Below are positions 7,097-49,618 of a DNA stretch of 64,000 nt, piece after piece (within the stretch, counting starts at the first letter, position 1; each line of letters opens with the position of its first letter). The notes beneath the pieces were generated by a model. That model did not search any database. It saw nothing but the letters and a program-made list of their open reading frames with translations, and was not told the DNA's origin. The stretch comes from a candidate division WOR-3 bacterium UBA2258 (GTDB taxonomy: Bacteria > Hydrothermota > Tepidihabitantia > Tepidihabitantales > Tepidihabitantaceae): positions 10,853-74,852 of the forward strand of contig DDXO01000025.1 of the NCBI GenBank assembly GCA_002347155.1, written 5' to 3'. Both the position numbers and the translations under genes were made by a program.

Positions 7097-9913
7097 ATGC
7101 CTAAGAAGGTGGCAGTCCTGACAACCATCGTCGCGATGCTCGCCGCGACCGGCTTAGCGAGCACCACGACCACCGCGGCCACACCGGCGCCCGGTCCGGC
7201 GGTGCCGGCGGCGCAGAGGACAAGCCCGGTGCCGGCGATGCAGACATCGGTAACGGGAAACACCGGCCGTCCTATCATCCAATGGGACAAGTTCTACGAT
7301 AGAAACGGCAATCCGCTGCCGGGCGGCCCGCAAGAAGGTGTTGCCCCCGACTCGCTCTACTGGAAGGACTTCAACAGCACCACGTACTTGAAGTCGTCGG
7401 CCAAGGTCCAGAGTCCTTCTCCAGCCAACCGCACTGCGATGTCGTTCCACGACGCCCAGTCCACGGTCTGCATGGACCCGTATGGGAACTATGTCTATGA
7501 GGTAAACGGCACCAATCTGTACCGGTTCAGCACGGTTGACGGCTCGATGACCACGTACACCCTGTCGTACTCGGGCGGGCTGGGATGCGCAACCGACGGT
7601 CAGTACATCTACCGCCCGGACGGGACGACGATGTACAAGTACACGATGACCGGCTCCTACGTCAACTCAACCACGACTGACTACTCTTGCGATGCGTATT
7701 CGGTATCGTGCTGCCGTGATACGGTCTGGTTCACAGACGACCGGTACAACGGAGTGAACATCTACGGCTATGCCTGTTCCAAGTTCACCGGCGGCAGCAT
7801 CACCCACGATGCCACGTGGAACGTCGGCACCGGCACCCTCGGCGTCGGCAACATCGCCTGGGACGGCGAGTACTTCTACCTGGCATGGATCGGCACCAGC
7901 CCCATCACGTTCAAGCGGTTCTACTCGGACAGAACGCTCTATTCGACCGGCACCGTGAGCATCGACCCGCGCAGCGTGATGTGTGCCGTGCCCTACCGAC
8001 GACAGGTGACGCAGGATTCACTCTACTGGAAGAGCTACTACAGCACCTCTCTCATCTACTCATCACCCAAAGCCCAGGATGTGACCCCGGCCCAGGCAAC
8101 TCCTTCTCCCTGGCAGTACGACCAGTCCCTGTCGTGCATGACCCCGGACGGCCACTTCCTTTTCGAGGTATACGGCACGAACCTGCGGCGAACCGACCTC
8201 TGGACCGGCGCGGTGAACAACTACACCCTGGCCGATGCCAGCGGCGGCGCATGTGGAACGGACGGTGAGTACGTCTACATCCCGAAAGGCACGACGACGC
8301 GCAAATACACGCTGGACGGGACCCTGATCAGCACGACCACGACTGACTACGCGCCGTGGGTGGACGCCAGCACCTTCGGCTTCGGAGTTGCCAACGACAC
8401 GGTCTGGCTCACCCCTGCCGAGGATGGCACGACCTGGTACGGCTATACCTGTTCGAAGTTCACCGGCGGCAGCATCACCCACGATGCGACGTGGACCACG
8501 GGCGGCGGCTCCGCTGCTGCTATGAGCGTGACCTACGACGGTCAGTACTACTACATGACCTGGGGCGGCTACGGCTCCAACACGTTCCGGCGTTTCTACC
8601 GTGACCGGACGCTCTTTTCGAGCGGCACCGTCAACCTCGACCCCCGGGGCGTGATGTGCGAGGCGGTGTGTCCGCTGATGATTGTGACTACCGACCTTCA
8701 GACCTACCGGACCGACTTGGCCGAGACCCTCAGGGTCGCGAGCGGCGGGACACTCGACCTTATCGGCACCCTCAGCTTGGACGTGAACGCGACATTCCCG
8801 GCAACCGCGTGGTACAACGACGGGTGCCGCGTGATACTTGAGTTCTCCGGCTCTCCCATTCCCGCCACGCCTGCTCTCATCGGTGACAGCCTGGCCAGGT
8901 TCGTCGACCTCGGCGGACGAGTTGTGACTGCGACGTGGGCCGACCAGATAGGCAACCTTGCCGGCCGCTACGTGGACCAATACATGCCGTTCACGATGCA
9001 GCCTCAGGCTGGCGTCGGGGGCACGATGAGCACGGTGCACAACCCGCTCCATCCGATAATGGACGGAGTGACCGCGCTGGCGGTGGACAACTACTTGACC
9101 GGCAACACGCACACTACACTGCGCAGCCCGAACTGCGTCTGTCTGGCCGAGTGGGACAGCAACAACCGCTCGGTCGCCGCCTACCTGGACAGCGCGGGCG
9201 TGCGGCTGGTATCTGTGGGCTTTGTACCGTTCAAGAATTGGTCCGGAGCCACTGGCCAGTGGGCGAGGCTCCTGGTCAATGCGATTCTCTGGGTCTGGCC
9301 GGGTATGCCAGCCGTCGGCGTAACCGCACCCGACACCGGTGACGTCTGGGTCGTCGGAACATCGCAGGACATCACGTGGACCGCGGCCAACGGGCCGATC
9401 ACCAAGGACTCGATTGTCTACAGCAACGACAACGGCGCGACCTGGAACTTCCTCGACAAGAACACTGGCTCGCGGACCAGCTACACCTGGAACCCGATAC
9501 CCAACACACCGAGCACGGACTGCTACGTCCGGGTATTCACCTGGAACGCAGTCGGGACGGGCTTCGGTACGTCCGGTAAGTTCGAAATCCAAGTGGGTGG
9601 CGGCATCGAACAGCCCGAGAACAACGCCCTGCCGCTCGCCTTCGCCCTGTACCAGCCCTACCCCAACCCGTCGGCTTCAGGCACACAAGTCCGCTACGCC
9701 CTGCCGCGCCCGGCCCGGGTCGAACTGCACGTCTACGACGTGACCGGCGCGCTGGTGCGTCGCCTCGTCGAAGGCACGCAGCCGGCCGGGTACCAGCACG
9801 CCTACTGGAACGGGTGCGACGACCGCGGCCGAGCTGTCGCGCCCGGCGTCTACTACTGCCGCTTCAAGTCTGGCGACTACGTCGCCACGCAGAAACTGGT
9901 CGTGCGCAGATAA
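7097..9913 (+). CDS. Secreted surface protein with T9SS-type C-terminal sorting domain (paralog 1 of 3)
   Basis: Start at ATG 7097 after AAAGGAG, with signal peptide MPKKVAVLTTIVAMLAATGLA. There are two copies of a roughly 230 aa Cys/Trp/Tyr-rich module, then a roughly 200 aa domain shared with paralog 2, then an Ig-like domain. The tail YQPYPNPSASGTQVRYALP...VELHVYDVTGALVRRL...GVYYCRF is typical of Por/T9SS CTDs. Confidence 0.85.
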   Translation: MPKKVAVLTTIVAMLAATGLASTTTTAATPAPGPAVPAAQRTSPVPAMQTSVTGNTGRPIIQWDKFYDRNGNPLPGGPQEGVAPDSLYWKDFNSTTYLKSSAKVQSPSPANRTAMSFHDAQSTVCMDPYGNYVYEVNGTNLYRFSTVDGSMTTYTLSYSGGLGCATDGQYIYRPDGTTMYKYTMTGSYVNSTTTDYSCDAYSVSCCRDTVWFTDDRYNGVNIYGYACSKFTGGSITHDATWNVGTGTLGVGNIAWDGEYFYLAWIGTSPITFKRFYSDRTLYSTGTVSIDPRSVMCAVPYRRQVTQDSLYWKSYYSTSLIYSSPKAQDVTPAQATPSPWQYDQSLSCMTPDGHFLFEVYGTNLRRTDLWTGAVNNYTLADASGGACGTDGEYVYIPKGTTTRKYTLDGTLISTTTTDYAPWVDASTFGFGVANDTVWLTPAEDGTTWYGYTCSKFTGGSITHDATWTTGGGSAAAMSVTYDGQYYYMTWGGYGSNTFRRFYRDRTLFSSGTVNLDPRGVMCEAVCPLMIVTTDLQTYRTDLAETLRVASGGTLDLIGTLSLDVNATFPATAWYNDGCRVILEFSGSPIPATPALIGDSLARFVDLGGRVVTATWADQIGNLAGRYVDQYMPFTMQPQAGVGGTMSTVHNPLHPIMDGVTALAVDNYLTGNTHTTLRSPNCVCLAEWDSNNRSVAAYLDSAGVRLVSVGFVPFKNWSGATGQWARLLVNAILWVWPGMPAVGVTAPDTGDVWVVGTSQDITWTAANGPITKDSIVYSNDNGATWNFLDKNTGSRTSYTWNPIPNTPSTDCYVRVFTWNAVGTGFGTSGKFEIQVGGGIEQPENNALPLAFALYQPYPNPSASGTQVRYALPRPARVELHVYDVTGALVRRLVEGTQPAGYQHAYWNGCDDRGRAVAPGVYYCRFKSGDYVATQKLVVRR

Positions 9914-9937
9914 GCACCGACCGGCAGCCAAATCACA

Positions 9938-9959
9938 GGGGCGGGCTTCGGCCCGCCCC
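9938..9959 (+). terminator. GC-rich stem-loop terminator after paralog 1
   Basis: GGGGCGGGC-TTCG-GCCCGCCCC: perfect 9-bp stem with a TTCG tetraloop, 25 nt after the stop. Confidence 0.6.
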
Positions 9960-10035
9960 GCCTTCATCCACACTCAACCCTCCACCTCCGGTATTGCACA
10001 TTGCACATTCCACGTTCTTTTCACGTAGTCAGACC

Positions 10036-10064
10036 TTGACAGACAGGGAAGACGGATGTCTAAT
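10036..10064 (+). promoter_or_regulatory. sigma70-type promoter of surface-protein paralog 2
   Basis: TTGACA, 17 nt spacer, TCTAAT. This is a duplicated cassette. Confidence 0.65.
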
Positions 10065-10181
10065 GAAGTTGATAAGACTCGGCGGTCATGGCCCAATGTC
10101 CGCACTCCGGCATCCGGCTGCAAGGGAGGCCGGCCGGATGCCACAGAAGCAGTGACGCCTCCCGCCAACGAAGGAGAACAG

Positions 10182-35841: not shown

Positions 35842-36378
35842 CTAGTCGCGCAGGTAGGCTCTCCAGCAGAACACGGCCCCGCCCGCCGTCACAAGCAGGC
35901 CAAGACCTACTACTGCCGCCGCTGCTATCCCGGCACTCTGCATCGTCAGTGCGGGCAGGGTTACGCTGACGGGTACATAGCGCCCGAGCAGTCCCGCAAT
36001 TCCGCGCTCGAGCGGGGTGCGGAAGAGCCAAACGGCGCCGGCGAGCAGCGGCGCCAGAGCCAGCGACCACCACGGGCTGAACACGAACACGCGCTGCCTC
36101 GGCAAAGACCGCATCACCTTCTCGCTGAATCCCGGCTGCGGGTCCAGCACCGGCTGATGATCAAGGGTTGAGACGACAGCAGTCATTAACGCCAACTCAT
36201 GCTGGCACTCTCCGCACTCAACCAGGTGGGCGTCGAACAGCCGCCGGCTCTCCGGTTCCAGTTCGCGCGTCACATAGTCCTGTAACCGGCTCCGCAGAAG
36301 TTCACAGCCCGCACCGCTTCCGCTTCTCTCTATCCCTCTGTCCCTCTGTCCCTCTGTCCCTTTCTCTCTCATTGCCAC
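35842..36378 (-). CDS. Anti-sigma factor (zf-HC2 type) with C-terminal TM segments
   Basis: CELLRSRLQDYVTRELEPESRRLFDAHLVECGECQHEL (HX3CX2C). It overlaps the stop of the upstream sigma gene. The N-terminal codons are encoded by an 8-mer repeat. Confidence 0.8.
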   Translation of the reverse strand: MAMREKGTEGQRDRGIERSGSGAGCELLRSRLQDYVTRELEPESRRLFDAHLVECGECQHELALMTAVVSTLDHQPVLDPQPGFSEKVMRSLPRQRVFVFSPWWSLALAPLLAGAVWLFRTPLERGIAGLLGRYVPVSVTLPALTMQSAGIAAAAVVGLGLLVTAGGAVFCWRAYLRD

Positions 36379-36935
36379 ATCACCTCTTTCAGGTTATCCC
36401 ATCCGACCCGCTCCAGGAGCCGCGTCTTCAGCACGGCCCGGGCGCGGTGGATATGAGCCTTGATTGTGCCCATCGGCTTGTGGGTCAGCTTCGCAATCTC
36501 CTCATAAGACAGGCCGTTGAAATGATAGAGCGTCAGCGCGGCGCGGTAGTCATCCGGCAGCTTGCTGACCTCCTCCTGTATCGTCGCCTGGATGTCCCGG
36601 TTGCGGAACTCCTGAACCGGGCCCTCGACCGGCACACCCATCGCCTCGTCTAGCTCCACCTCGGGCTTTCGCTTCCGCAGCTCGCTGATGCAGGTATTAT
36701 AGCAGATGCGGTAGAGCCACGACGAGAACTTGGATTCGCCCTTGAAGCCGGGCAGGGCGGCCCACGCCTTGATGAAAGACTCCTGGGCCGCGTCCTCGGC
36801 CCGTCCCGGGTCCTTCATCAACCGGCGTGACATTGAATACAGCATTCCTTTGTAGCGTTCGACCAGCACCCCAAACGCCTGTTCGTCGCCCCGCGCTGAG
36901 CGGCTCACCAGGACATCTTCGGATGCAGTCTCCAT
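36369..36935 (-). CDS. ECF-type RNA polymerase sigma factor
   Basis: 188 aa. Region 2 (FSSWLYRICYNTCISELRKR) and region 4 (YRAALTLYHFNGLSYEEIAKLTHKPMGTIKAHIHRAR). Confidence 0.9.
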   Translation of the reverse strand: METASEDVLVSRSARGDEQAFGVLVERYKGMLYSMSRRLMKDPGRAEDAAQESFIKAWAALPGFKGESKFSSWLYRICYNTCISELRKRKPEVELDEAMGVPVEGPVQEFRNRDIQATIQEEVSKLPDDYRAALTLYHFNGLSYEEIAKLTHKPMGTIKAHIHRARAVLKTRLLERVGWDNLKEVMWQ

Positions 36936-37975: not shown

Positions 37976-38332
37976 CTACTCGCCGTGGATGCGAACTTGG
38001 TGCTCTTCCACAATCCAGAGTCGTCCGGTGACTGCCTCGCTCGTGAGCAGTCGGATGATACGGGCAATCACCCTCAGGACTCTGGCCTTGTCCTGCCTTG
38101 TCAGACGGAGTACGACGAAACCCGGGTAGCGGTCGGGCGGATAAGCCTGAATGTCCGCGAAATCAAGGTCAAGCGTGACCAGCACGCGACCTTCGCGCTG
38201 GCACACCGACCCGATCGTCGTGTCCACAGAACCGCTCAGTCGCTGCTCGCCGACCGTCACTGCTTCGTGTCCGGCAGCCCGCAGCAGGTCTGCCGCCTCG
38301 GTCGGGAGGTTCTCGTCGGTCTTGAACTTCAT
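37976..38332 (-). CDS. DUF5615-family PIN-like putative toxin
   Basis: MKFKTDENLPTEAADLLRAAGHEAVTV... is typical of DUF5615. It lies 9 nt downstream of its DUF433 partner. Confidence 0.8.
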   Translation of the reverse strand: MKFKTDENLPTEAADLLRAAGHEAVTVGEQRLSGSVDTTIGSVCQREGRVLVTLDLDFADIQAYPPDRYPGFVVLRLTRQDKARVLRVIARIIRLLTSEAVTGRLWIVEEHQVRIHGE

Positions 38333-38340
38333 CCGCCGGC

Positions 38341-38598
<258 letters not shown>

Positions 38599-40559: not shown

Positions 40560-41159
40560 CTACTCCGTCGCGCCACATTTCCTTAGAAGGTCGACCACAT
40601 CCGCGTGGCCCATCGTAGCAGCGAGAAGCAGCGGGGTGTTCCCGTTGTCGGCCTTCACGTTCACATCTGCACCCTTGGCAACGAGGAGCTCGACCACGTT
40701 CTTGTGGCCGAACGCGGCGGACCAATGTAGCGGCGTCAACCCCGCATTGGTTCTAGCGTTCACGTTGGCACCCTTGGTGACAAGGAGGTCGGCGACAGCG
40801 TCGCGGCCCTTGCGTGCGGCCCAGTGTAACGGGGTCCGACCAGACTTGGTTCTCGCATCCACCTCTGCGCCCGCCACGATGAGGAGCAGAGTCAAGTCCG
40901 TCCGATCCTTCTGGGCGGCATAATGCAGCGGGGTCAGACCTAGGCGATCCGTTGCGTTCACATTGGCACCCTTGGCAATGAGGGCTTCGACCACGTCATA
41001 TTGGCCCTTCACAACAGCCACATGCAGCGTGGAGTATCCGAGGAGGATGCGTGCGTTCATGTCTGCACCGCAACCCGCCCAGACGGCAAACATCAGCGAG
41101 GCCCCCATTACAGCTGCTAGAGGCCTGAGTCTACGTCCGCGCACTACTACTATCGGCAT
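40560..41159 (-). CDS. Ankyrin-repeat lipoprotein
   Basis: ATG 41159 after AGAGGAG, with lipobox-like VWAGC. It has five ankyrin repeats (G.TPLH.AA..G...VV.LL...GA.VN). Confidence 0.8.
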   Translation of the reverse strand: MPIVVVRGRRLRPLAAVMGASLMFAVWAGCGADMNARILLGYSTLHVAVVKGQYDVVEALIAKGANVNATDRLGLTPLHYAAQKDRTDLTLLLIVAGAEVDARTKSGRTPLHWAARKGRDAVADLLVTKGANVNARTNAGLTPLHWSAAFGHKNVVELLVAKGADVNVKADNGNTPLLLAATMGHADVVDLLRKCGATE

Positions 41160-41285
41160 CGCTCTCCTCTCTTTGCGGGCCACCGCCCACCGCGTACAGC
41201 GCAACGGTGGAACACGTCATATCTAACGCGTGGGGAATCTCGGACGTGGTCGTCGTCCATCGACGCCCGCTTTCATATGCCCCAG

Positions 41286-42917: not shown

Positions 42918-43187
42918 CTAGCGCTCGAACCGTTTCATCACTCTGTTGACGGACTTCCCGTCGACTTTGACCTTCGCTACGGCCCGGCCATAGACATCCC
43001 TAGCCTGCGTGTCGACGACAACGGCTTTGTTGAGGATGAGCTTCTTGAGCGCTGCTGTGGCCTGCGCCGCGCCCCGTGTTCCGACCTCGGGTGTGTCCAC
43101 ATCGGCCAAACGCACCGGCCTCTTTCTACTCGCCGTCTTGAACGTGTCACCGTCTATAACCTGTGTGACGGTCTCTCTTCTAGGCAT
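42918..43187 (-). CDS. Mini staphylococcal-nuclease (SNase/thermonuclease) homolog
   Basis: ATG 43187 after GGAGGT. VIDGDTF, VRLADVDTPE and DVYGRAVAKV correspond to the SNase OB-fold core with Ca-binding and catalytic positions. Only 89 aa. Confidence 0.7.
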   Translation of the reverse strand: MPRRETVTQVIDGDTFKTASRKRPVRLADVDTPEVGTRGAAQATAALKKLILNKAVVVDTQARDVYGRAVAKVKVDGKSVNRVMKRFER

Positions 43188-43203
43188 AGTACCTCCTGGT
43201 AGG

Positions 43204-43383
43204 CTACCTATTGCACTCGCCGCACTTCGTCTTGGCTTTGCACTCGTTGCAGAGGTCACGACCGCCACCCGAAGCCGGCTTGCTGCTGCGGACATCTGGA
43301 TTTTCCACCAGCGTCGGCCAGTTGGAGCAGTTCGTGCACCAGTGCCATGTATCACTGTTCTTGCGCTTACGGTATTCGGGCAT
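43204..43383 (-). CDS. Small Cys-rich zinc-ribbon protein
   Basis: ATG 43383 after AAAGGAG. MPEYRKRKNSDTWHWCTNCSNWP...CNECKAKTKCGECNR carries two CXXC pairs plus extra Cys residues. Confidence 0.65.
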   Translation of the reverse strand: MPEYRKRKNSDTWHWCTNCSNWPTLVENPDVRSSKPASGGGRDLCNECKAKTKCGECNR

Positions 43384-43572
43384 AGTCAACTCCTTTCGGA
43401 CGGAGGTCTTGGGCACATCCACTTCTGCGGCTTCAAGGACGGCCGTGGGTGCGGATTCCTTAGCGAAGCTAAAGGGCCGCAAGAGGCGCGTCTCGAATCG
43501 GATGGCGCGCGGTGGACGGTGCCGAGTTGCGAAGAACCGCAGCCTACCATCTGAAGACCGCTCATGCTCCGG

Positions 43573-45054
43573 CTAGCCGACGCAACGTTCGAGTTCACGT
43601 GTCACACCTTCCAGACTCTCGACCGCTGTCTGACAATCTGGGTCTAGCTCGATGGCCCTCTGATAGAAGCGCTGAGCGCTGCGAAGGTGCTCAATGGTGA
43701 CCTCAGGCGCGGGTGGGTCCATCTCTGTCGGCACGTCCGCACCGAAGGCTCTGACCATCTTGTAGGTTGCCCGATGCACGTCAGCCGCGTTGGCAAGTAG
43801 CTCGTGCAAGTTGCCCTTCAATTCCCACCCTTCTGCGTCAGCAGGAGCCAGGCGAATCACCTCATCGGTTGTTCCCTCTGCCTCCTTGAATCGGCCAACC
43901 ATCATCTGCGCGAACCCCAACCCCTTCCAGACCTCGGGATTCTCGGGCGCCAGGGCAGTCGCTCTAGTAAGGCAGTTAAGCGCTTCCCTACCCCGTTCCA
44001 GACGCAGCAGAGCATCTCCCTTGACCAAGCATGCCTCTGGATCTTGCAGGCAGCACTCGCTCGCCAACGTTGAGAGCGCGCCTTCGTGGTCGCCTGTCAG
44101 TTCCTGGATTCTGCCCAGCTTGATCCTCAGGCTTCCATCGGTGGGGCGAAGCTCAATTGCGCGCGCATAGTGCGGCACCGCGTCTCTGAACCGCTTCCGC
44201 GCAACCTGGCAGTCACCCTTGGCCTGCAACGCCACTACCAGACTGGGGCACAACCGCAGCGCGTCATCGTAGCCGCGGATGGCGTCCTCGTGACGGTCCG
44301 CTCCTGCCAACCTATGTGCCCGATGGACGTGGGCCACGATGTACTCGGGGGCGATGGCAACTGCCTCATCGTACTTCTGAAGACTAGCGTCCTCTTGAGT
44401 CTTGTCGCCAGCCCTGCGCAGCGTCTCCGCCTTGTCCAGCTTCTCCCGCAAACAGGCTTCCTTCGCGTGATCGACGTGCGCGCGGTAGATGTCACCTCGC
44501 ACATGGCTCATCTCTGACGAGTACAGCGTGGAAAGGACATCAGAGTCTTTCAGGGACTTCCGTCTTCCTGGTTCGACTCCGGTGTCGTAGAAGAAAAAAA
44601 GCCTGTGAATAACGGCCATCTTCTGGGCCAGCAGTTCATGTACTTCCGGTGAGACTTCCGGATGGCGAAGCCTAGAGACCTCCGAGAGGGCTTCGTGCGG
44701 TGACATGCCCATGTCGACGCAGCGATCGTAGGTCCGCATCATCGCCCTGTAGTCACGCGCCGAGCTGAATGCACCGGCGACCATCGTGGCAAGAGCGACT
44801 AGACCAAAGCACAGGGCGCCAAGCACCACTCCCGCTAGTCCGAAGTACCACTTGACAGCCAGCAGGAACCCGATGCCAGCCATGAGGACAATGAGACTGG
44901 GTGTAAGGGACGGACCTCCAGAGGTCGCGGGTCGTTGGGCCGGGAACCTGAGGCGAACGTACGAGACTGAAGCGAGGACGATTCCAGTTGCCCAGAGTAC
45001 GACCGCGGGCACCAGCCAAATGGCGTCAATCCACCCCGGAAGACTTGGCTCCAT
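43573..45054 (-). CDS. Membrane-anchored TPR-repeat protein
   Basis: 493 aa. Three to four N-terminal TM helices are followed by multiple TPR-like repeats (AIELRPTDGSLRIKLG, ATALAPENPEVWKGLG, AIELDPDCQTA). Confidence 0.75.
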   Translation of the reverse strand: MEPSLPGWIDAIWLVPAVVLWATGIVLASVSYVRLRFPAQRPATSGGPSLTPSLIVLMAGIGFLLAVKWYFGLAGVVLGALCFGLVALATMVAGAFSSARDYRAMMRTYDRCVDMGMSPHEALSEVSRLRHPEVSPEVHELLAQKMAVIHRLFFFYDTGVEPGRRKSLKDSDVLSTLYSSEMSHVRGDIYRAHVDHAKEACLREKLDKAETLRRAGDKTQEDASLQKYDEAVAIAPEYIVAHVHRAHRLAGADRHEDAIRGYDDALRLCPSLVVALQAKGDCQVARKRFRDAVPHYARAIELRPTDGSLRIKLGRIQELTGDHEGALSTLASECCLQDPEACLVKGDALLRLERGREALNCLTRATALAPENPEVWKGLGFAQMMVGRFKEAEGTTDEVIRLAPADAEGWELKGNLHELLANAADVHRATYKMVRAFGADVPTEMDPPAPEVTIEHLRSAQRFYQRAIELDPDCQTAVESLEGVTRELERCVG

Positions 45055-45108
45055 CTAGTTCCACTCCCTCCGTGTCAACGTGGGCTGACGCTTGCTTTCA
45101 TCGCTCAC

Positions 45109-45136
45109 ATGGTAGCGGCCGGGGAAATCATGTCAA
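45109..45136 (-). promoter_or_regulatory. Island promoter cassette, copy 3
   Basis: TTGACA (45136-45131), 16 nt spacer, TACCAT (45114-45109) on the minus strand. Confidence 0.6.
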
Positions 45137-45164
45137 ACGCGCGGGCGTGCTGCGCAGGGCGTCG

Positions 45165-46334
45165 TCATTCGTCCGCCATGCGGCGGTAGCGTTCGAAGTC
45201 GTCCTGGTCGTGCTGAGGCTTGACTGTGAGGATGGCCTGCATGATGTCGGCGAGTTCGATGAACCGAGGCACGGTAACTGCGATGCGTGCCGCTTCTTTG
45301 ACCACAAGTTCAATCTCCGCGCAGGTGTAGTTCTCGGTCATCTGGGCACAGGCCAGCAGGTCGATCCTCAACTGCGGCCTGTCGTCGAGGTAAAGCCGGA
45401 ATAGCTCAACGCGGGCCTCGAGGTCAGGCGGGCCGACGTAGATCTTCTTGTCGAGTCTGCCCGGCCGTCGCGCGGCTTCGTCCACTTTGTTGGGCAGGTT
45501 GGTAGCGCCCACGACCAGTATTCGAGACTGCCCGGCGTTCTCCAGTTGCTTCAGGAACTCCGCCACCTCGGCCGCATAGTGGTACCACAGGTCAGTGCCG
45601 TTGCGGGCGGGTAGGAAGGTATCTATCTCATCAAGGAAGAGCAACGTGGGCGCTTTGTCGCGCGCCTCTTGGAACATCTTGCCGATGAGGCCCTGCGTGC
45701 CGTGAACGTAGGTACTGGCGATGTCCGACCCGCGCACCTCACGGAAGTTGAATCCGAGCCGTGCCGCCAGCTTGCGGGCGATGTAGGTCTTGCCGCAACC
45801 GGGCGGCCCGTACAGCAGGATTCCGTTGGGAAGGCCGATGCCGAACTGACGGTAGCGGTCCGGCTGGCGGATCGGCATGAGGACGTCGCGTTCGAGCATC
45901 CCCTTCAGTTCGTGCATCCCGGCCACGCCGGGCCACGCGTTTGCCGCATCAACGACATGTTCAGTGCCGCTGGGCGCGCTCGCGCCGGGCATGTTCAGGG
46001 TCTTCATCAACCACTCCTTTGTCACCATCGATTCGGGGTCGCCCGGGCTGAGTTCGGTCTCCAGGCATAGCCACGCCAGCGCCTCGGAATACCAGCCCCA
46101 TTCACGCAGCAACTGAATCCGCAGTGCCAGAGCGAGCCGCCGTTCGGCGGCGAACGTCGGGTCGTCGCGGAAGAGCGGCCAGCGCTGGTCCATCATCCGG
46201 TCAAGGAACCTGAGCGCCCCCCGCTTGCGGCCCCTGGCGAGTTGCTCCGCCAGCTTGCTTCTCCAATTGTCGGGTATCTGTCCATTCGATAGAGTGCGTG
46301 GAACCGGATGCCGGACGCTCGCCGTGCGCCGCAT
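45165..46334 (-). CDS. Classic-clade AAA+ ATPase (CDC48/FtsH-like module) with novel N-terminal domain
   Basis: Walker A GPPGCGKT, Walker B LLFLDEID, and second region of homology VVGATNLPNKVDEAARRPGRLD. ATG 46334 lies 1 nt after the TGA of the upstream gene. Confidence 0.85.
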   Translation of the reverse strand: MRRTASVRHPVPRTLSNGQIPDNWRSKLAEQLARGRKRGALRFLDRMMDQRWPLFRDDPTFAAERRLALALRIQLLREWGWYSEALAWLCLETELSPGDPESMVTKEWLMKTLNMPGASAPSGTEHVVDAANAWPGVAGMHELKGMLERDVLMPIRQPDRYRQFGIGLPNGILLYGPPGCGKTYIARKLAARLGFNFREVRGSDIASTYVHGTQGLIGKMFQEARDKAPTLLFLDEIDTFLPARNGTDLWYHYAAEVAEFLKQLENAGQSRILVVGATNLPNKVDEAARRPGRLDKKIYVGPPDLEARVELFRLYLDDRPQLRIDLLACAQMTENYTCAEIELVVKEAARIAVTVPRFIELADIMQAILTVKPQHDQDDFERYRRMADE

Positions 46335-46335
46335 G

Positions 46336-47391
46336 TCAATCGCCTGCGCGATGAGCCGGCGTTCGGGCTTCGGGGCTCTGATTGCCAATCATCTTGAATA
46401 TATCCAGTTGCCCTCGTGTCGAGGCGAGTTGCAGAATCTCGCCCACGTGCCCGACCGGCACAATCTTCATCGGCCAGTCCTGAAGGAACGGCTGTGCCTT
46501 CGCCTCGTCCGCGTTCTCGCTGGGGAGGAACACTTCCCGAATGCCACCGCGGGCGGCTGCGTGCAGACGCTGGGGGACATCGCCGACCGGCAACAGACGG
46601 CCGTCTGTGCTGACCCTGCCCGCTATCGCCGTGCCGCGTCGCAGCGGGACGCCGGTCAACGCCGAGACCAGGCCCACGGTAACCGCTGCCCCAAGCGTGT
46701 CGGACTGAACCGGTATGTCCCCAATCTCAGCAATGACGACAACGTCGGTCAGTTCCAGGGACGCGGCCGCGAACCCCAACTCTGAGACGTGTGCCCTGAC
46801 GTACGCAACAGCGGCGCCGACGCTCTCAGACATGACGCGTCCCACCGCACCGGTCGGAATGACTTCGCCCCTGCCGGTCATGGTAAGGGCTTCAATGCGC
46901 ACGGGCATGTCCACTCCGGCGGCCAGGCCCATGACCACGCCCACCTGAACCCGAGCTGCGGCCGGGATGTTCGCGACTTGCGCAGTCGTGGACAGAACCG
47001 GCACCGGCCGCTCGACCGCAGGGCCTCGCTGCTCGTCGAGATGCTCACGGACTTCTGGCGCTTCGGCCAACTGTGCCACAGATGCGGACGCCCCTTGGCT
47101 AATGAGCAAGCCGGGCGGCTTGGATTCAGGTGGATCAACCTCCCGGCGAATGAACAACGGGGCTTCATCCGCACGCGACCGCCCGGATAGGAAGACGGAC
47201 GAATCGGCGGCCATCGAAACGTCCCCGCCGAGGCGTACCCACCGGTCGACTTCGTCCCTACTGAACAACCAGAGCTTGCCCCTCTTGTGAGCGGGCAACC
47301 CGCGCTTGTCTATCCAGCGGTATACAGTGTAACGCTTGACGCCGAGATAGCCTGCAACGTCGTCGACCGAGAGCCATCGATGGTCAGCCAT
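46336..47391 (-). CDS. Excisionase-type HTH fused to a Lon-protease-like (S16) C-terminal domain with substituted catalytic dyad
   Basis: N-terminus LSVDDVAGYLGVKRYTVYRWIDKRGLPAHKRGKLWLFSRDEVDRWV (HTH_17-like). The C-terminus ...GAAVTVGLVSALTGVPLRRGTAIAGRVSTDGRLLPVGDV..LHAAARGGIREVFLPSEN aligns with the Lon proteolytic domain. Confidence 0.8.
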   Translation of the reverse strand: MADHRWLSVDDVAGYLGVKRYTVYRWIDKRGLPAHKRGKLWLFSRDEVDRWVRLGGDVSMAADSSVFLSGRSRADEAPLFIRREVDPPESKPPGLLISQGASASVAQLAEAPEVREHLDEQRGPAVERPVPVLSTTAQVANIPAAARVQVGVVMGLAAGVDMPVRIEALTMTGRGEVIPTGAVGRVMSESVGAAVAYVRAHVSELGFAAASLELTDVVVIAEIGDIPVQSDTLGAAVTVGLVSALTGVPLRRGTAIAGRVSTDGRLLPVGDVPQRLHAAARGGIREVFLPSENADEAKAQPFLQDWPMKIVPVGHVGEILQLASTRGQLDIFKMIGNQSPEARTPAHRAGD

Positions 47392-47463
47392 TGGCTATCA
47401 ACAACCAAGAAGCTCGCTGGCGTGTCGACGCAGTCGTGTCTTCATAGTTAAACATATGGCCTC

Positions 47464-47492
47464 ATGATAATATCATAGATACTTGATGTCAA
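47464..47492 (-). promoter_or_regulatory. Promoter with overlapping palindromic operator for the HTH-Lon-like/AAA+ pair
   Basis: On the minus strand: TTGACA (47492-47487), 17 nt spacer, TATCAT (47469-47464). The -10 is half of the perfect 13-bp palindrome ATGATAATATCAT (47464-47476), in an AT-rich spacer. Confidence 0.6.
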
Positions 47493-48703
47493 GCTTTGTT
47501 TATCTATATGCTATTTTGACTACTATACAGGCTGAACAGATTCAGAGTCCCATCGCTGTGATATCTTTACCGACGGCAGATGGCTATCGATGGGCAGACT
47601 GGTATGGGATCGAGCGTGTGATCGTTCGTGCGGCCTGACCTGCTCAGCCGGTCAGCTATCTCATGGCTGTGGAATATACTGACGACATGCCAGACTCACT
47701 GGAGACCGCAGATGCAGGCAGAGTCTCGTAACCTTTTGTTTTTCAGGTGTATACGTCACCAGCTAGAAGCCAATCAGCATTGGGCTTGGCCGAGAGTGGC
47801 ACTCTCGGGTTCACTGAGGAAACCAATGGGGGAGTGACCCCCGGGGTCGTCCCCGGAGTGGTTCGGGGATTGAATCGGCAACAGAATCGAAGAGCGACCT
47901 CTTGAGTGAGTCTAAGAGTCACTCTTGGAATGACTTAGGGACTGAATAGGCAACTGAATCAACCTATGAATCGTAGACTCAGGTCCCGAGCGAGTCGTAG
48001 AGTGAATCTGCAAGTCAATCGGCGGTTCAGTTTAGGAGTGAGTCTATGAGTCACCCATGGATCGAGTCGGGAATTGAGTTGCGGATTGAACCGTGGGATG
48101 AATTGTGGGCTGAATTGCCGAATGCCAATCATAGCGACGGTTCGGTTTCAGCTCGTGGTTTTGCTCCGCATGGTCCGTCGGATTCTGAGCCCGGTGTTTA
48201 GAGAAGCTCATGTAACCATTGCATCGCTGGCTCAAGTGCGTGCAATCGGTCGGCTGCTGGCCGTAGGCTGTCGGCTGTAAGCTGTCTTGGAACCTGCCGC
48301 CTTCGCCCAGGACCGCCCGCGCCGCGTCAGGAATCGACTGCTGCGTCTCCGGGAAATCGATTCTGTGATGCTGTGTCTTGCCATCGGCCGGAAACAGGGG
48401 CAGCGTTCCTCGTCGGTCCTTATCTATCTGGGTCCGATACGCCGCCTTGCCGGCGGGCTTCGGGGTGCCGTGCGTGTCATAACCTGCAAACGGCCATTGA
48501 GGCGAATGACGACCGAATAACGAAGTCCTGACTCCCAGTTGACTGCTGCCCATTCGCACCTCATTCGGCCCTCGTGCTTCGAGCTTCGTCATTTCCCGGG
48601 TTGGCTGCCGCATTGACATGCCGTCCGCGCCTGCTACCATCTTGGCGACGTGAGCGGCCGAGCCGACCCGGGTCGCCATCGGCTAGCTCAAGAGGAGAAA
48701 GTC

Positions 48704-49618
48704 ATGAAGCTCGAAAACCTGTCGCAGGGCCGGCTGAACACGACCCTGATGGGCGTGGTCAAAGCCGTGCTCGACTACTACCACCTGGTCTCAAGTGATG
48801 CGTGGGCGTTCGGCGGTTCCGGCCACGCATTCCTCATAAACATCCACGAGCAGATCTGCCCGAGCGGACCGTACTGCTGGAAGTACGATGGCTTCCAGAA
48901 GCTGCTCCGTAACCTGGGGCTGGAGATGACCGACCTCGGGTTCTACCACTCAGGGAGCGCGCCCGAGGAACGTGCCGCGGTCGAGCAGAAACTGAAGCAC
49001 GCCCTCGACTCAGGAATCCCCTGCTCGCTCGTGAACATGGAGCACCAGGTCATCTCCGGGTACGACGACAAGACCTTCTTCACGGGCCAACCGTGGGGTG
49101 ACTGCTGCGGCGGATTTCCGCCCGCGACCCTCACCTTCGGCTCCTGGCAGGAGATGAAGGACGAAGTACACGTGAACTTCTTCACGTTCGGCAAACTCAG
49201 GCCGGCAGACGACCGGACAGCAGTGCGGGACAGCCTCAGCTACGCGCTCGACCTGTTCCGACACCCGGAGCAGCACAGCCTTGAGCACTACGGCATCGGC
49301 CCGATTGCCTACGACAACTGGACCCGCGCCGTGGCCGAGCACGGCTCGTCCCACGGCAACTGGTGGAACGGAACCGTCTGGTCGGAATGTCGGGCCATGG
49401 CCTCCGGTTACTTCGCCGAGGTCGGACAGAAGCTCGGAGCCGTGGCCGGTCAGGCCGACGAGCTGAGCAGGGCATACAAGGAAATCGCCGACCTCTTGTC
49501 CAGGGCGGCAGACAAGTCGCTGGAGTCGACCGCGAAAGCGGCGCTCCTGACCGAGACGAAGGAGAAAGAAGCCAGGGCCGTCAACAGAGTCGAATCCCTG
49601 CTCGCGGCGCTGGCCTAG
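48704..49618 (+). CDS. Hypothetical protein
   Basis: ATG 48704 after AGAGGAGAAAG. 304 aa with no motif I can name. Confidence 0.65.
   Translation: MKLENLSQGRLNTTLMGVVKAVLDYYHLVSSDAWAFGGSGHAFLINIHEQICPSGPYCWKYDGFQKLLRNLGLEMTDLGFYHSGSAPEERAAVEQKLKHALDSGIPCSLVNMEHQVISGYDDKTFFTGQPWGDCCGGFPPATLTFGSWQEMKDEVHVNFFTFGKLRPADDRTAVRDSLSYALDLFRHPEQHSLEHYGIGPIAYDNWTRAVAEHGSSHGNWWNGTVWSECRAMASGYFAEVGQKLGAVAGQADELSRAYKEIADLLSRAADKSLESTAKAALLTETKEKEARAVNRVESLLAALA

Follow-up and report, generated by a model that had tools for sequence, protein, structure and literature searches.

A gene pair coding for a helix-turn-helix protein with a non-canonical Lon-like domain and a CDC48-like AAA+ ATPase in a WOR-3 bacterium

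The gene pair and its promoter

The stretch of DNA considered here (the window) comprises 64,000 nucleotides of the candidate division WOR-3 bacterium UBA2258 (assembly GCA_002347155.1, contig DDXO01000025.1, positions 10,853 to 74,852), and carries two adjacent genes on its minus strand. The product of the first, gene 1, joins a helix-turn-helix (HTH) DNA-binding domain via a linker to a domain with the fold of the Lon protease, and that of the second, gene 2, is an AAA+ ATPase with a helical N-terminal domain (Table 1). An earlier interpretation, made from the nucleotide sequence without database searches (the sequence-only reading), had viewed the two genes as a split, order-inverted Lon machine. 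In the light of the profile, structural and comparative analyses described below, the pair probably constitutes a regulatory or defence module not yet described, as opposed to a split Lon protease.

The TGA stop codon of gene 1 (46338-46336) is followed by a single C and then by the ATG of gene 2 (46334-46332), and a check of the coordinates confirmed this one-nucleotide separation, which had already been recognized in the sequence. In homologous loci the two genes usually overlap or have, as here, one base between them. Upstream of gene 1 a promoter scan identified TTGACA-17-TATCAT at 47492-47464, which agrees with the consensus at 11 of the 12 bases, and the suggestion that the pair has a promoter of its own is thus upheld. 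The next gene downstream, coding for a membrane protein with tetratricopeptide (TPR) repeats, is preceded by a separate promoter at 45136-45109 in the same scan, and the unit is therefore a self-contained two-gene operon with a sigma-70 promoter.

The sequence-only reading had drawn attention to a perfect 13-bp palindrome, ATGATAATATCAT, that overlaps the -10 hexamer, and had taken it as a sign of autoregulation by the HTH. The palindrome and its overlap with the -10 are as described, but its candidacy as the operator was rejected: it sits in the variable spacer, is not conserved in the 10 homologous promoters (L002, L004, L015-L022), and is of a size that is common in the window, where 57 perfect palindromes with arms of at least 6 were counted as against ~43 in shuffled sequences. 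A better candidate site might be a series of phased TAT(G) blocks over 47442-47470, which overlap the -10 and the start region and in which the T residues at 47464, 47454 and 47444, exactly 10 bp apart, are invariant in 11 homologous promoters (columns T97, T107 and T117 of alignment A3, with T105, A106, G108 and A116 nearly invariant). Autoregulation by the conserved HTH thus remains plausible, with a different site as the likelier target. No RNA elements of Rfam were detected in 43000-49000.

Table 1. Features of the gene pair and its upstream region, in window coordinates
Feature	Position	Strand	Remarks
-35 hexamer TTGACA	47487..47492	-	Invariant in 11 homologous upstream regions
-10 hexamer TATCAT, 17-nt spacer	47464..47469	-	A and final T conserved in homologues
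Perfect 13-bp palindrome ATGATAATATCAT	47464..47476		Overlaps the -10; window-specific, doubtful operator
5' leader, -10 to start codon	47392..47463	-	~70 nt; no Rfam match
Conserved block CATATGTTTAACTATGA	47442..47458	-	Just 3' of the -10; candidate HTH operator, putative function
Gene 1, HTH, linker and putative pseudo-Lon protein	46336..47391	-	351 aa
HTH_17 (excisionase/MerR-like) DNA-binding domain	47233..47376	-	Residues 6-53; best conserved part of gene 1
Disordered, unconserved linker	46966..47223	-	Residues 57-142 (~90 residues); pLDDT <50
LonA-derived protease-fold domain	46423..46953	-	Residues 147-323; Lon_C, profile and Foldseek matches
Thr232, at the position of E. coli Lon Ser679 (nucleophile)	46696..46698	-	Codon ACG; preceded by invariant Asp231
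Arg275, at the position of E. coli Lon Lys722 (catalytic)	46567..46569	-	Codon CGT; gap-free alignment, Thr232 + 43
C-terminal motif GQLD(I/M)FKMxG	46384..46413	-	Conserved, beyond the Lon fold; candidate docking peptide
TGAcATG junction	46332..46338	-	Indicates translational coupling; one-base spacing also in L002, L004, L015 and L019, overlap in L012
Gene 2, N-domain and CDC48-like AAA+ ATPase	45165..46334	-	389 aa
All-helical N-domain, five helices, TPR-like	45996..46298	-	Residues 13-113; common to the whole ATPase family
Walker A GPPGCGKT	45786..45809	-	Residues 176-183, invariant
Pore-loop-1 YVHG	45699..45710	-	Residues 209-212; H211 and G212 invariant, Y209 and V210 nearly so
Walker B Asp235-Glu236	45627..45632	-	Invariant

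Gene 1 and its Lon-like active site

The domain composition of gene 1 was established by Pfam matches to HTH_17 (PF12728; 60.5 bits against a cut-off of 27) and Lon_C (PF05362; 113.9 bits against 21.1), and the same scan found no ATPase domain in the protein. An AlphaFold model built from 20 family members has a confident HTH, a disordered segment at residues 57-142 and a confident C-terminal alpha/beta domain. The last was superimposed by Foldseek on the proteolytic domain of E. coli Lon with a target-normalised template modelling (TM) score of 0.80-0.85, a root mean square deviation of ~2.5 Å and 33-37% identity (matches to 3wu3, 3wu6 and 1rr9), and the family profile aligned with 1rr9 at 114 bits. 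The fusion of an HTH to a homologue of the Lon proteolytic domain, proposed on the basis of the sequence, is thereby substantiated, and the C-terminal domain does have the Lon fold. The NCBIfam equivalog models of full-length Lon gave partial matches that all fell well short of their cut-offs (in one case 94.9 against 891). Beyond the Lon fold, the family alignment, in which the tails are aligned too, shows Q328, L329 and F332 of the C-terminal motif to be invariant. Another protein, P0089 (465 aa), is a Ser/Thr protein kinase whose C-terminal HTH_17 shares 56% identity with that of gene 1; HTH domains of this type therefore also combine with a different signalling domain. An apparent fusion of HU with Lon_C (P0049) was rejected as a relative of gene 1, being a read-through across adjacent lon and hupB genes.

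The active site was aligned in two ways, with the family profile against 1rr9 and 6on2 and in a separate MAFFT alignment, and the two agreed without gaps. Both place Thr232 opposite the nucleophile Ser679 of E. coli Lon, as had been surmised from the sequence, and Arg275 opposite the catalytic Lys722. By residue count Lys722 is the second lysine of GGLKEK and lies 43 residues past Ser679; a dyad spacing of 43 residues has been reported for LonA and LonBA (PMC9569914). The replacement of the catalytic lysine by proline in the sequence-only reading reflects a two-residue error in register: Pro273 faces the non-catalytic Lys720, and residue counting excludes a Thr/Pro dyad in favour of a change from Ser/Lys to Thr/Arg. 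The broader claim that the dyad is non-canonical holds. A further departure is seen at Thr704, which positions Lys722 in LonA and which corresponds to Ala257 in the window protein.

Comparison across the family showed that these changes are not peculiar to the window. Among close relatives position 232 is Thr or Ser, and Asp231, Asp271 and Arg275 are invariant; L012 and L014, two divergent loci at 32-35% identity, have Ser at the nucleophile position and, at the lysine position, Arg (L012) or Met (L014). The position of Thr704 is occupied by Ala, Val or Thr. No family member, L012 and L014 included, has Lys at the position of Lys722, and an intact Ser-Lys dyad is thus not recovered in any of them. 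An Asp before the nucleophile is a habit of LonB and LonC, LonA having Pro at this point (PMC9569914). With respect to the Lon proteases (S16) as a group, gene 1 shares the fold and lacks both the Ser-Lys dyad and an N-terminal HCLR AAA+ module in the same chain. At the very least, the Lon-like site as predicted from these alignments is non-canonical, and it is most simply read as non-proteolytic. Since the Ser-Lys chemistry has been lost and the fold kept, the domain would most likely be a ring-forming and/or sensing module and not a protease.

The segments of the two proteins differ in their rates of change. Across loci the HTH retains 65-94% identity and the ATPase core 69-90%, the Lon-like domain spans 27-92%, and the linker falls to 8-57% (8-20% in distant members, and 55-57% even in the closest). 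Where the Lon-like domain is 27-57% identical the ATPase core is still at 69-86%, and where the former is at ~55% the latter is at 77-86%. Judged by these identities, the Lon-like half is the folded part of the pair that evolves fast. Its rapid change next to a conserved HTH fits a putative sensor or scaffold with a conserved DNA target better than a constrained enzyme.

The ATPase, its relatives and the distribution of the pair

Gene 2 was matched by the Pfam models AAA (PF00004; 112.6 bits) and AAA_lid_3 (29.8 bits). Its best NCBIfam models were CDC48, PAN and FtsH, with Lon appearing only at E = 0.003, and among solved structures it comes closest to the D2 rings of AFG2, VAT and p97. Besides the motifs listed in Table 1, sensor-1 Asn279, Arg290 and Arg293 are invariant in an alignment of 30 sequences. 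The protein thus has every hallmark of the classic AAA+ clade that was considered (PF00004, AAA_lid_3, both Walker motifs, sensor 1, the two arginines of the second region of homology and the pore loop), and its assignment by the sequence-only reading to a CDC48/FtsH-type and non-HCLR ATPase was correct. From the integrity of these motifs it looks like a working unfoldase. The N-terminal region, earlier described as some 170 unrecognizable residues, measures ~130 residues and is not an orphan, the whole family having it in common. Residues 115-132 of gene 2 are disordered, and relatives give weak TPR_14 matches over the N-domain region. A Foldseek search with the whole protein retrieved only the AAA module, and the fold class of the N-domain stays "five-helix, TPR-like".

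Relatives of gene 2 that combine the same N-domain with the AAA+ module are common, with ~50% identity over ~93% of the length, and a search with the N-domain alone gave 75 cluster representatives. The closest relatives from defence loci are ~50-56% identical. A Lon-like gene is absent from the loci of these wider relatives. In four independent loci (L006/L007, L013, L026 and L027) the ATPase directly follows an HKD-SNF2 helicase and a type IIG restriction enzyme/methyltransferase, and in L006 the HEC-01 system (HEC-01A/B) is embedded between these genes. The helicase-methyltransferase-ATPase arrays span L006:1-7137, L013:1-6803, L026:1-8146 and L027:1-8134, and their type IIG enzymes match PDLC03628 at up to 1013 bits. 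A fifth locus lies near DISARM-like genes, and one more is in a non-defence context. The N-domain and AAA+ module were also found fused to other domains: 1) a WYL domain stands N-terminal to them in P0192 and P0238 (495 aa), and an RNase_H_2 gene lies upstream at the P0192 locus; 2) a retron-type reverse transcriptase is joined to them in P0257 (686 aa; L024:411-2471, also L025), seen on three contigs from two samples and matching PADLOC RT_II-A over its full length at 270 bits. An Rfam search found no retron RNA upstream of this fusion. We know of no described retron type with a CDC48-like AAA+ effector. The window pair itself does not qualify as a retron, as its region contains no reverse transcriptase and the fusion occurs only in the distant relative P0257.

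These observations are best explained if gene 2 is one branch of an ATPase family that has spread horizontally and whose usual place of action is in defence loci. Given that this large family exists without a Lon partner, the ATPase of gene 2 is, on its sequence affinities, not a detached Lon module or a Lon remnant. Of the split and inverted Lon machine there remain the non-canonical dyad, the classic-clade ATPase and the obligate proximity of the two genes, and the derivation of the ATPase from Lon is lost.

The pair is very rare. Gene 1 is represented by ~31 close clusters in 5.8 billion proteins, all metagenomic, to which a third homology search, scoring only a subset of candidates, added two clusters of a distant clade, for a total of ~33. 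Among the GTDB representative genomes it was found only in one WOR-3 bin and one unclassified bin. In 10 of the 10 loci with enough downstream DNA the ATPase gene directly follows gene 1, down to 32% identity in the latter, and the neighbourhood survey called for by the sequence-only reading thus finds the two genes side by side wherever the contig is informative. An all-against-all BLASTP comparison of the open reading frames of ten loci yielded no third gene in common, and the flanks differ at every locus. Two loci show irregularities: a 175-aa open reading frame (L018:2673-3200) with a hydrophobic N-terminus and an HNH-like motif (VDHIVPLSRGG...EPEHHQKT) lies between the Lon-like and ATPase genes, and at L001:9024-10185 the ATPase is matched in two overlapping frames (9024-9449 and 9421-10170), a frameshift pointing to a pseudogene or an assembly error.

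The proposal that the pair heads an AT-rich accessory island downstream did not survive: the downstream genes are not conserved with it, and the "island" is a weak dip in GC content from ~0.64 to 0.59-0.62. The downstream TPR/transmembrane, SNase-like and ankyrin genes were likewise rejected as parts of the system, only the pair being common to the 10 loci and the TPR gene having its own promoter. The SNase-like nuclease is a small open reading frame at 42918-43482 (-), with 34 bits, a PADLOC "SNc+LTD" match of 22 bits and an overlapping Cys-rich frame of 92 aa; the ankyrin-repeat protein lies at 40560-41204 (-). The same accessory stretch includes a DUF5615 PIN-like protein, probably a toxin of the toxin-antitoxin type (37976-38515, -; 77 bits), and an extracytoplasmic function (ECF) sigma factor gene is found at 36369-36935 (-). 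On the other side, the ~1.1 kb upstream of the promoter (47500-48650) has the lowest GC content of the window, 0.553, with a 19-bp palindrome at 47790-47808 and tandem repeats of 12-14 bp at 48087-48286. A mobile-element or phage origin was rejected: there were no IMG/VR hits, no full-length relative in plasmids, only generic-domain matches in PHROG and no tRNAs.

Known systems and the reading of the pair

As the sequence-only reading had supposed, the combination matches no described system in PADLOC, NCBIfam, Pfam or the literature searched, and its likenesses to known systems are partial. One is with LonA (MEROPS S16), the best match of gene 1 in both sequence and structure, which has the same fold and the same 43-residue dyad spacing. 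Gene 1 differs from it in the Thr/Ser and Arg/Met dyad, in the loss of Thr704 and in the substitution of HTH_17 and a linker for the AAA+ module and the Lon N-domain, and in the pair a gene of its own codes for the ATPase, which is of the classic clade and not a fused HCLR module. In BrxL of type 1 BREX, which works in a defence setting, HTH-like N-terminal domains occur together with an AAA+ module and a Lon domain that is inactive (PMC12839542). The pair shares with BrxL the HTH, the AAA+ module and a Lon fold without the Ser-Lys dyad (PDB 8eil was matched at E = 3.6e-4), but BrxL is one chain with a different order, and its ATPase is of the MCM type as opposed to the CDC48-like one of gene 2. 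BrxL models score far under their thresholds on gene 1 (TIGR02653, 29.6 against 628; PADLOC BrxL, 34.6 bits), and no BREX genes (PglX, PglZ or BrxC domains) were found in the flanking open reading frames scanned.

Other resemblances lie on the side of the ATPase or of the layout. IetAS is a toxin-antitoxin and defence pair made up of an AAA-ATPase and a serine protease (PMC13069673), and like the window pair it has two genes, a classic-clade ATPase of ~370-390 aa and a protein of a serine-protease family; here, however, the partner is of the Lon (S16) and not the S8 (subtilisin) family, has an HTH and lacks the lysine, the genes come in the reverse order, and the N-domains are unrelated. In IetAS the ATPase is the antitoxin and the S8 protease the toxin, and the module acts in plasmid addiction and anti-phage defence. 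PADLOC IetA is the best defence-library match of gene 2 (101 bits, AAA module only), the NCBIfam model IteA (NF042959) gives 96.3 against a cut-off of 510, and no IetS-like S8 domain was found in the window genes scanned. The Hma system has a helicase-methylase-ATPase layout (PMC8565338; bioRxiv 10.1101/2024.01.29.577857) in which HmaB is a 5-methylcytosine (m5C) methyltransferase (PMC8565338). The loci of the ATPase relatives have the same three-part layout, with HEC-01 embedded in one, a nesting also described for Hma (bioRxiv 10.1101/2024.01.29.577857), and PADLOC HmaA matches their helicases; their methylase, however, is of type IIG and not m5C, the families differ, and the PADLOC model of the Hma ATPase (HmaC) is not among the hits to these ATPases. 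Hma was rejected as the family of these relatives on the last point and on the m5C methylase, and the window pair departs from it further in having no helicase or methyltransferase partner. Regulators of defence systems that bring an HTH together with a protease or sensor (CapH/CapP and the WYL regulators BrxR and CapW) resemble the proposed working of the pair in that an upstream DNA-binding protein with a further, signal-related domain controls an adjacent defence effector, and WYL is itself fused to members of the gene 2 family, but the folds are unrelated. As for MADS, the MAD1 model NF047737 reaches 68.9, its cut-off being 80, and the mad8 match covers the P-loop only (28 bits). IetA, BrxL, MAD1 and full-length Lon were accordingly all rejected as the family of the pair, their scores being below threshold, as was MtsA of MANTIS, an ATPase that is BrxC-like and differs in clade and size. 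The pair is best classed as a new form within two known themes, the one being that of inactive Lon domains that work alongside an ATPase and the other that of conflict modules in which one gene codes for an ATPase and a second for a protease-like protein.

We favour, tentatively and with a probability of about 0.4, a reading in which a pseudo-Lon regulator or sensor, itself autoregulated, is coupled to an unfoldase of a defence family. In such a scheme the gene 1 protein would bind its own promoter at the phased TAT(G) blocks and repress the operon, and its Lon-like domain would form a ring and/or act as a sensor, in the manner of the inactive Lon domains found in BrxL and RadA. The same protein might hold the ATPase or be remodelled by it, with the C-terminal QLDMFKM motif or the linker meeting the N-domain or pore of the ATPase; the clade-specific N-terminus of the ATPase is also a candidate point of contact. 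The effector, perhaps in defence or addiction, would then be the ATPase, and gene 1 would supply a regulator, a sensor or an antitoxin-like partner. The order of the genes, with the HTH gene first, coupled and under its own promoter, follows the pattern of an HTH antitoxin before its effector and that of IetAS; it is from this layout, taken with the defence context of the ATPase relatives, that the regulator-then-effector scheme derives. Several facts weigh against it: 1) the retention of Thr/Ser and Arg at the dyad positions in the close clade could mean altered chemistry and not a dead site; 2) the pair is absent from the IMG/VR viral contigs and from the phage-family and plasmid collections searched; 3) its loci do not lie in recognizable defence islands, with only toxin-antitoxin-like genes nearby; 4) the substrates of AAA+ ATPases of the classic clade are proteins, and the comparison with BrxL and RadA, both DNA-ring proteins, is the weaker for it.

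The second of these facts also speaks for the alternative that gene 1 is an ordinary lineage-specific transcription factor, using the Lon-like domain for oligomerisation or ligand binding and co-transcribed with a housekeeping or stress AAA+ protein without any role in defence. Metabolic or accessory flanks, the want of restriction-modification, CBASS or similar genes next to the pair, and a WOR-3 bin as the only genome-resolved host likewise favour this possibility. It is rendered rather doubtful by the patchy and very rare occurrence of the pair amid flanks that differ at every locus, by the nature of the closest ATPase relatives as components of defence loci and as retron reverse transcriptase and WYL fusions, and by the fast evolution of the half of gene 1 that does not bind DNA.

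The retained hydroxyl and arginine bear on another alternative, a genuine two-chain, DNA-tethered, ATP-dependent protease, in which the AAA+ hexamer would stack on a hexameric ring of the Lon fold, as in HslUV or ClpXP, and degrade DNA-bound or phage proteins by means of a non-canonical Thr/Ser nucleophile and Arg275, with Asp231 or Asp271 perhaps assisting. The preserved fold and its identity to LonA, the Thr/Ser hydroxyl at the nucleophile position in every member, the invariance of Arg275, Asp231 and Asp271 in the close clade, and the coupling to an intact unfoldase with a conserved pore loop are what such an enzyme would show. Yet no member has the lysine, which is even Met in L014, arginine is a poor general base, and the Thr704 position varies between Ala, Val and Thr. 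Further, no folded part of the pair evolves faster than the Lon-like domain, the ATPase family elsewhere has no protease partner, and the C-terminus of gene 2 lacks a penultimate Tyr and hence the HbYX docking motif of the proteasome type. We regard a two-chain protease as unlikely. A variant of the favoured reading makes the pair a novel immune or addiction module, in which the fast-evolving and disabled Lon ring would sit on DNA as a sensor or bait, for instance as a decoy for phage factors that attack or inhibit the host Lon, and gate the CDC48-like effector, an ATPase module that helicase-methylase restriction systems, a retron-type reverse transcriptase and WYL sensors otherwise recruit; it appears no less speculative. 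That the pair serves excision or recombination directionality in a mobile element is very improbable: gene 1 does match the excisionase domain TIGR01764 (58.2 bits against 28.8) and PHROG excisionase families, but it is a 351-aa fusion that shares the HTH_17 domain with excisionases and not their small, stand-alone, integrase-adjacent form, no integrase, tRNA or attachment-type repeats are found nearby, and the related loci have no integrase beside the pair and no hits to viral contigs.

If the regulator or sensor reading is right, the pair would represent a further route by which the Lon fold has been reused without Ser-Lys chemistry beside an ATPase, as in BrxL, RadA and ComM, here in a separate chain and with an HTH. 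It may also serve as a small two-gene system for asking what unfoldases do in conflict systems. Were the sensor-or-bait variant true, the widespread, still unnamed family of gene 2 would supply defence systems with a common effector or remodeller, to which different sensors could be attached interchangeably. That wider family of CDC48-like AAA+ proteins with a TPR-like N-domain, which extends over several phyla and has no specific model in PADLOC 2.0 or NCBIfam, is a more consequential lead than the pair itself.

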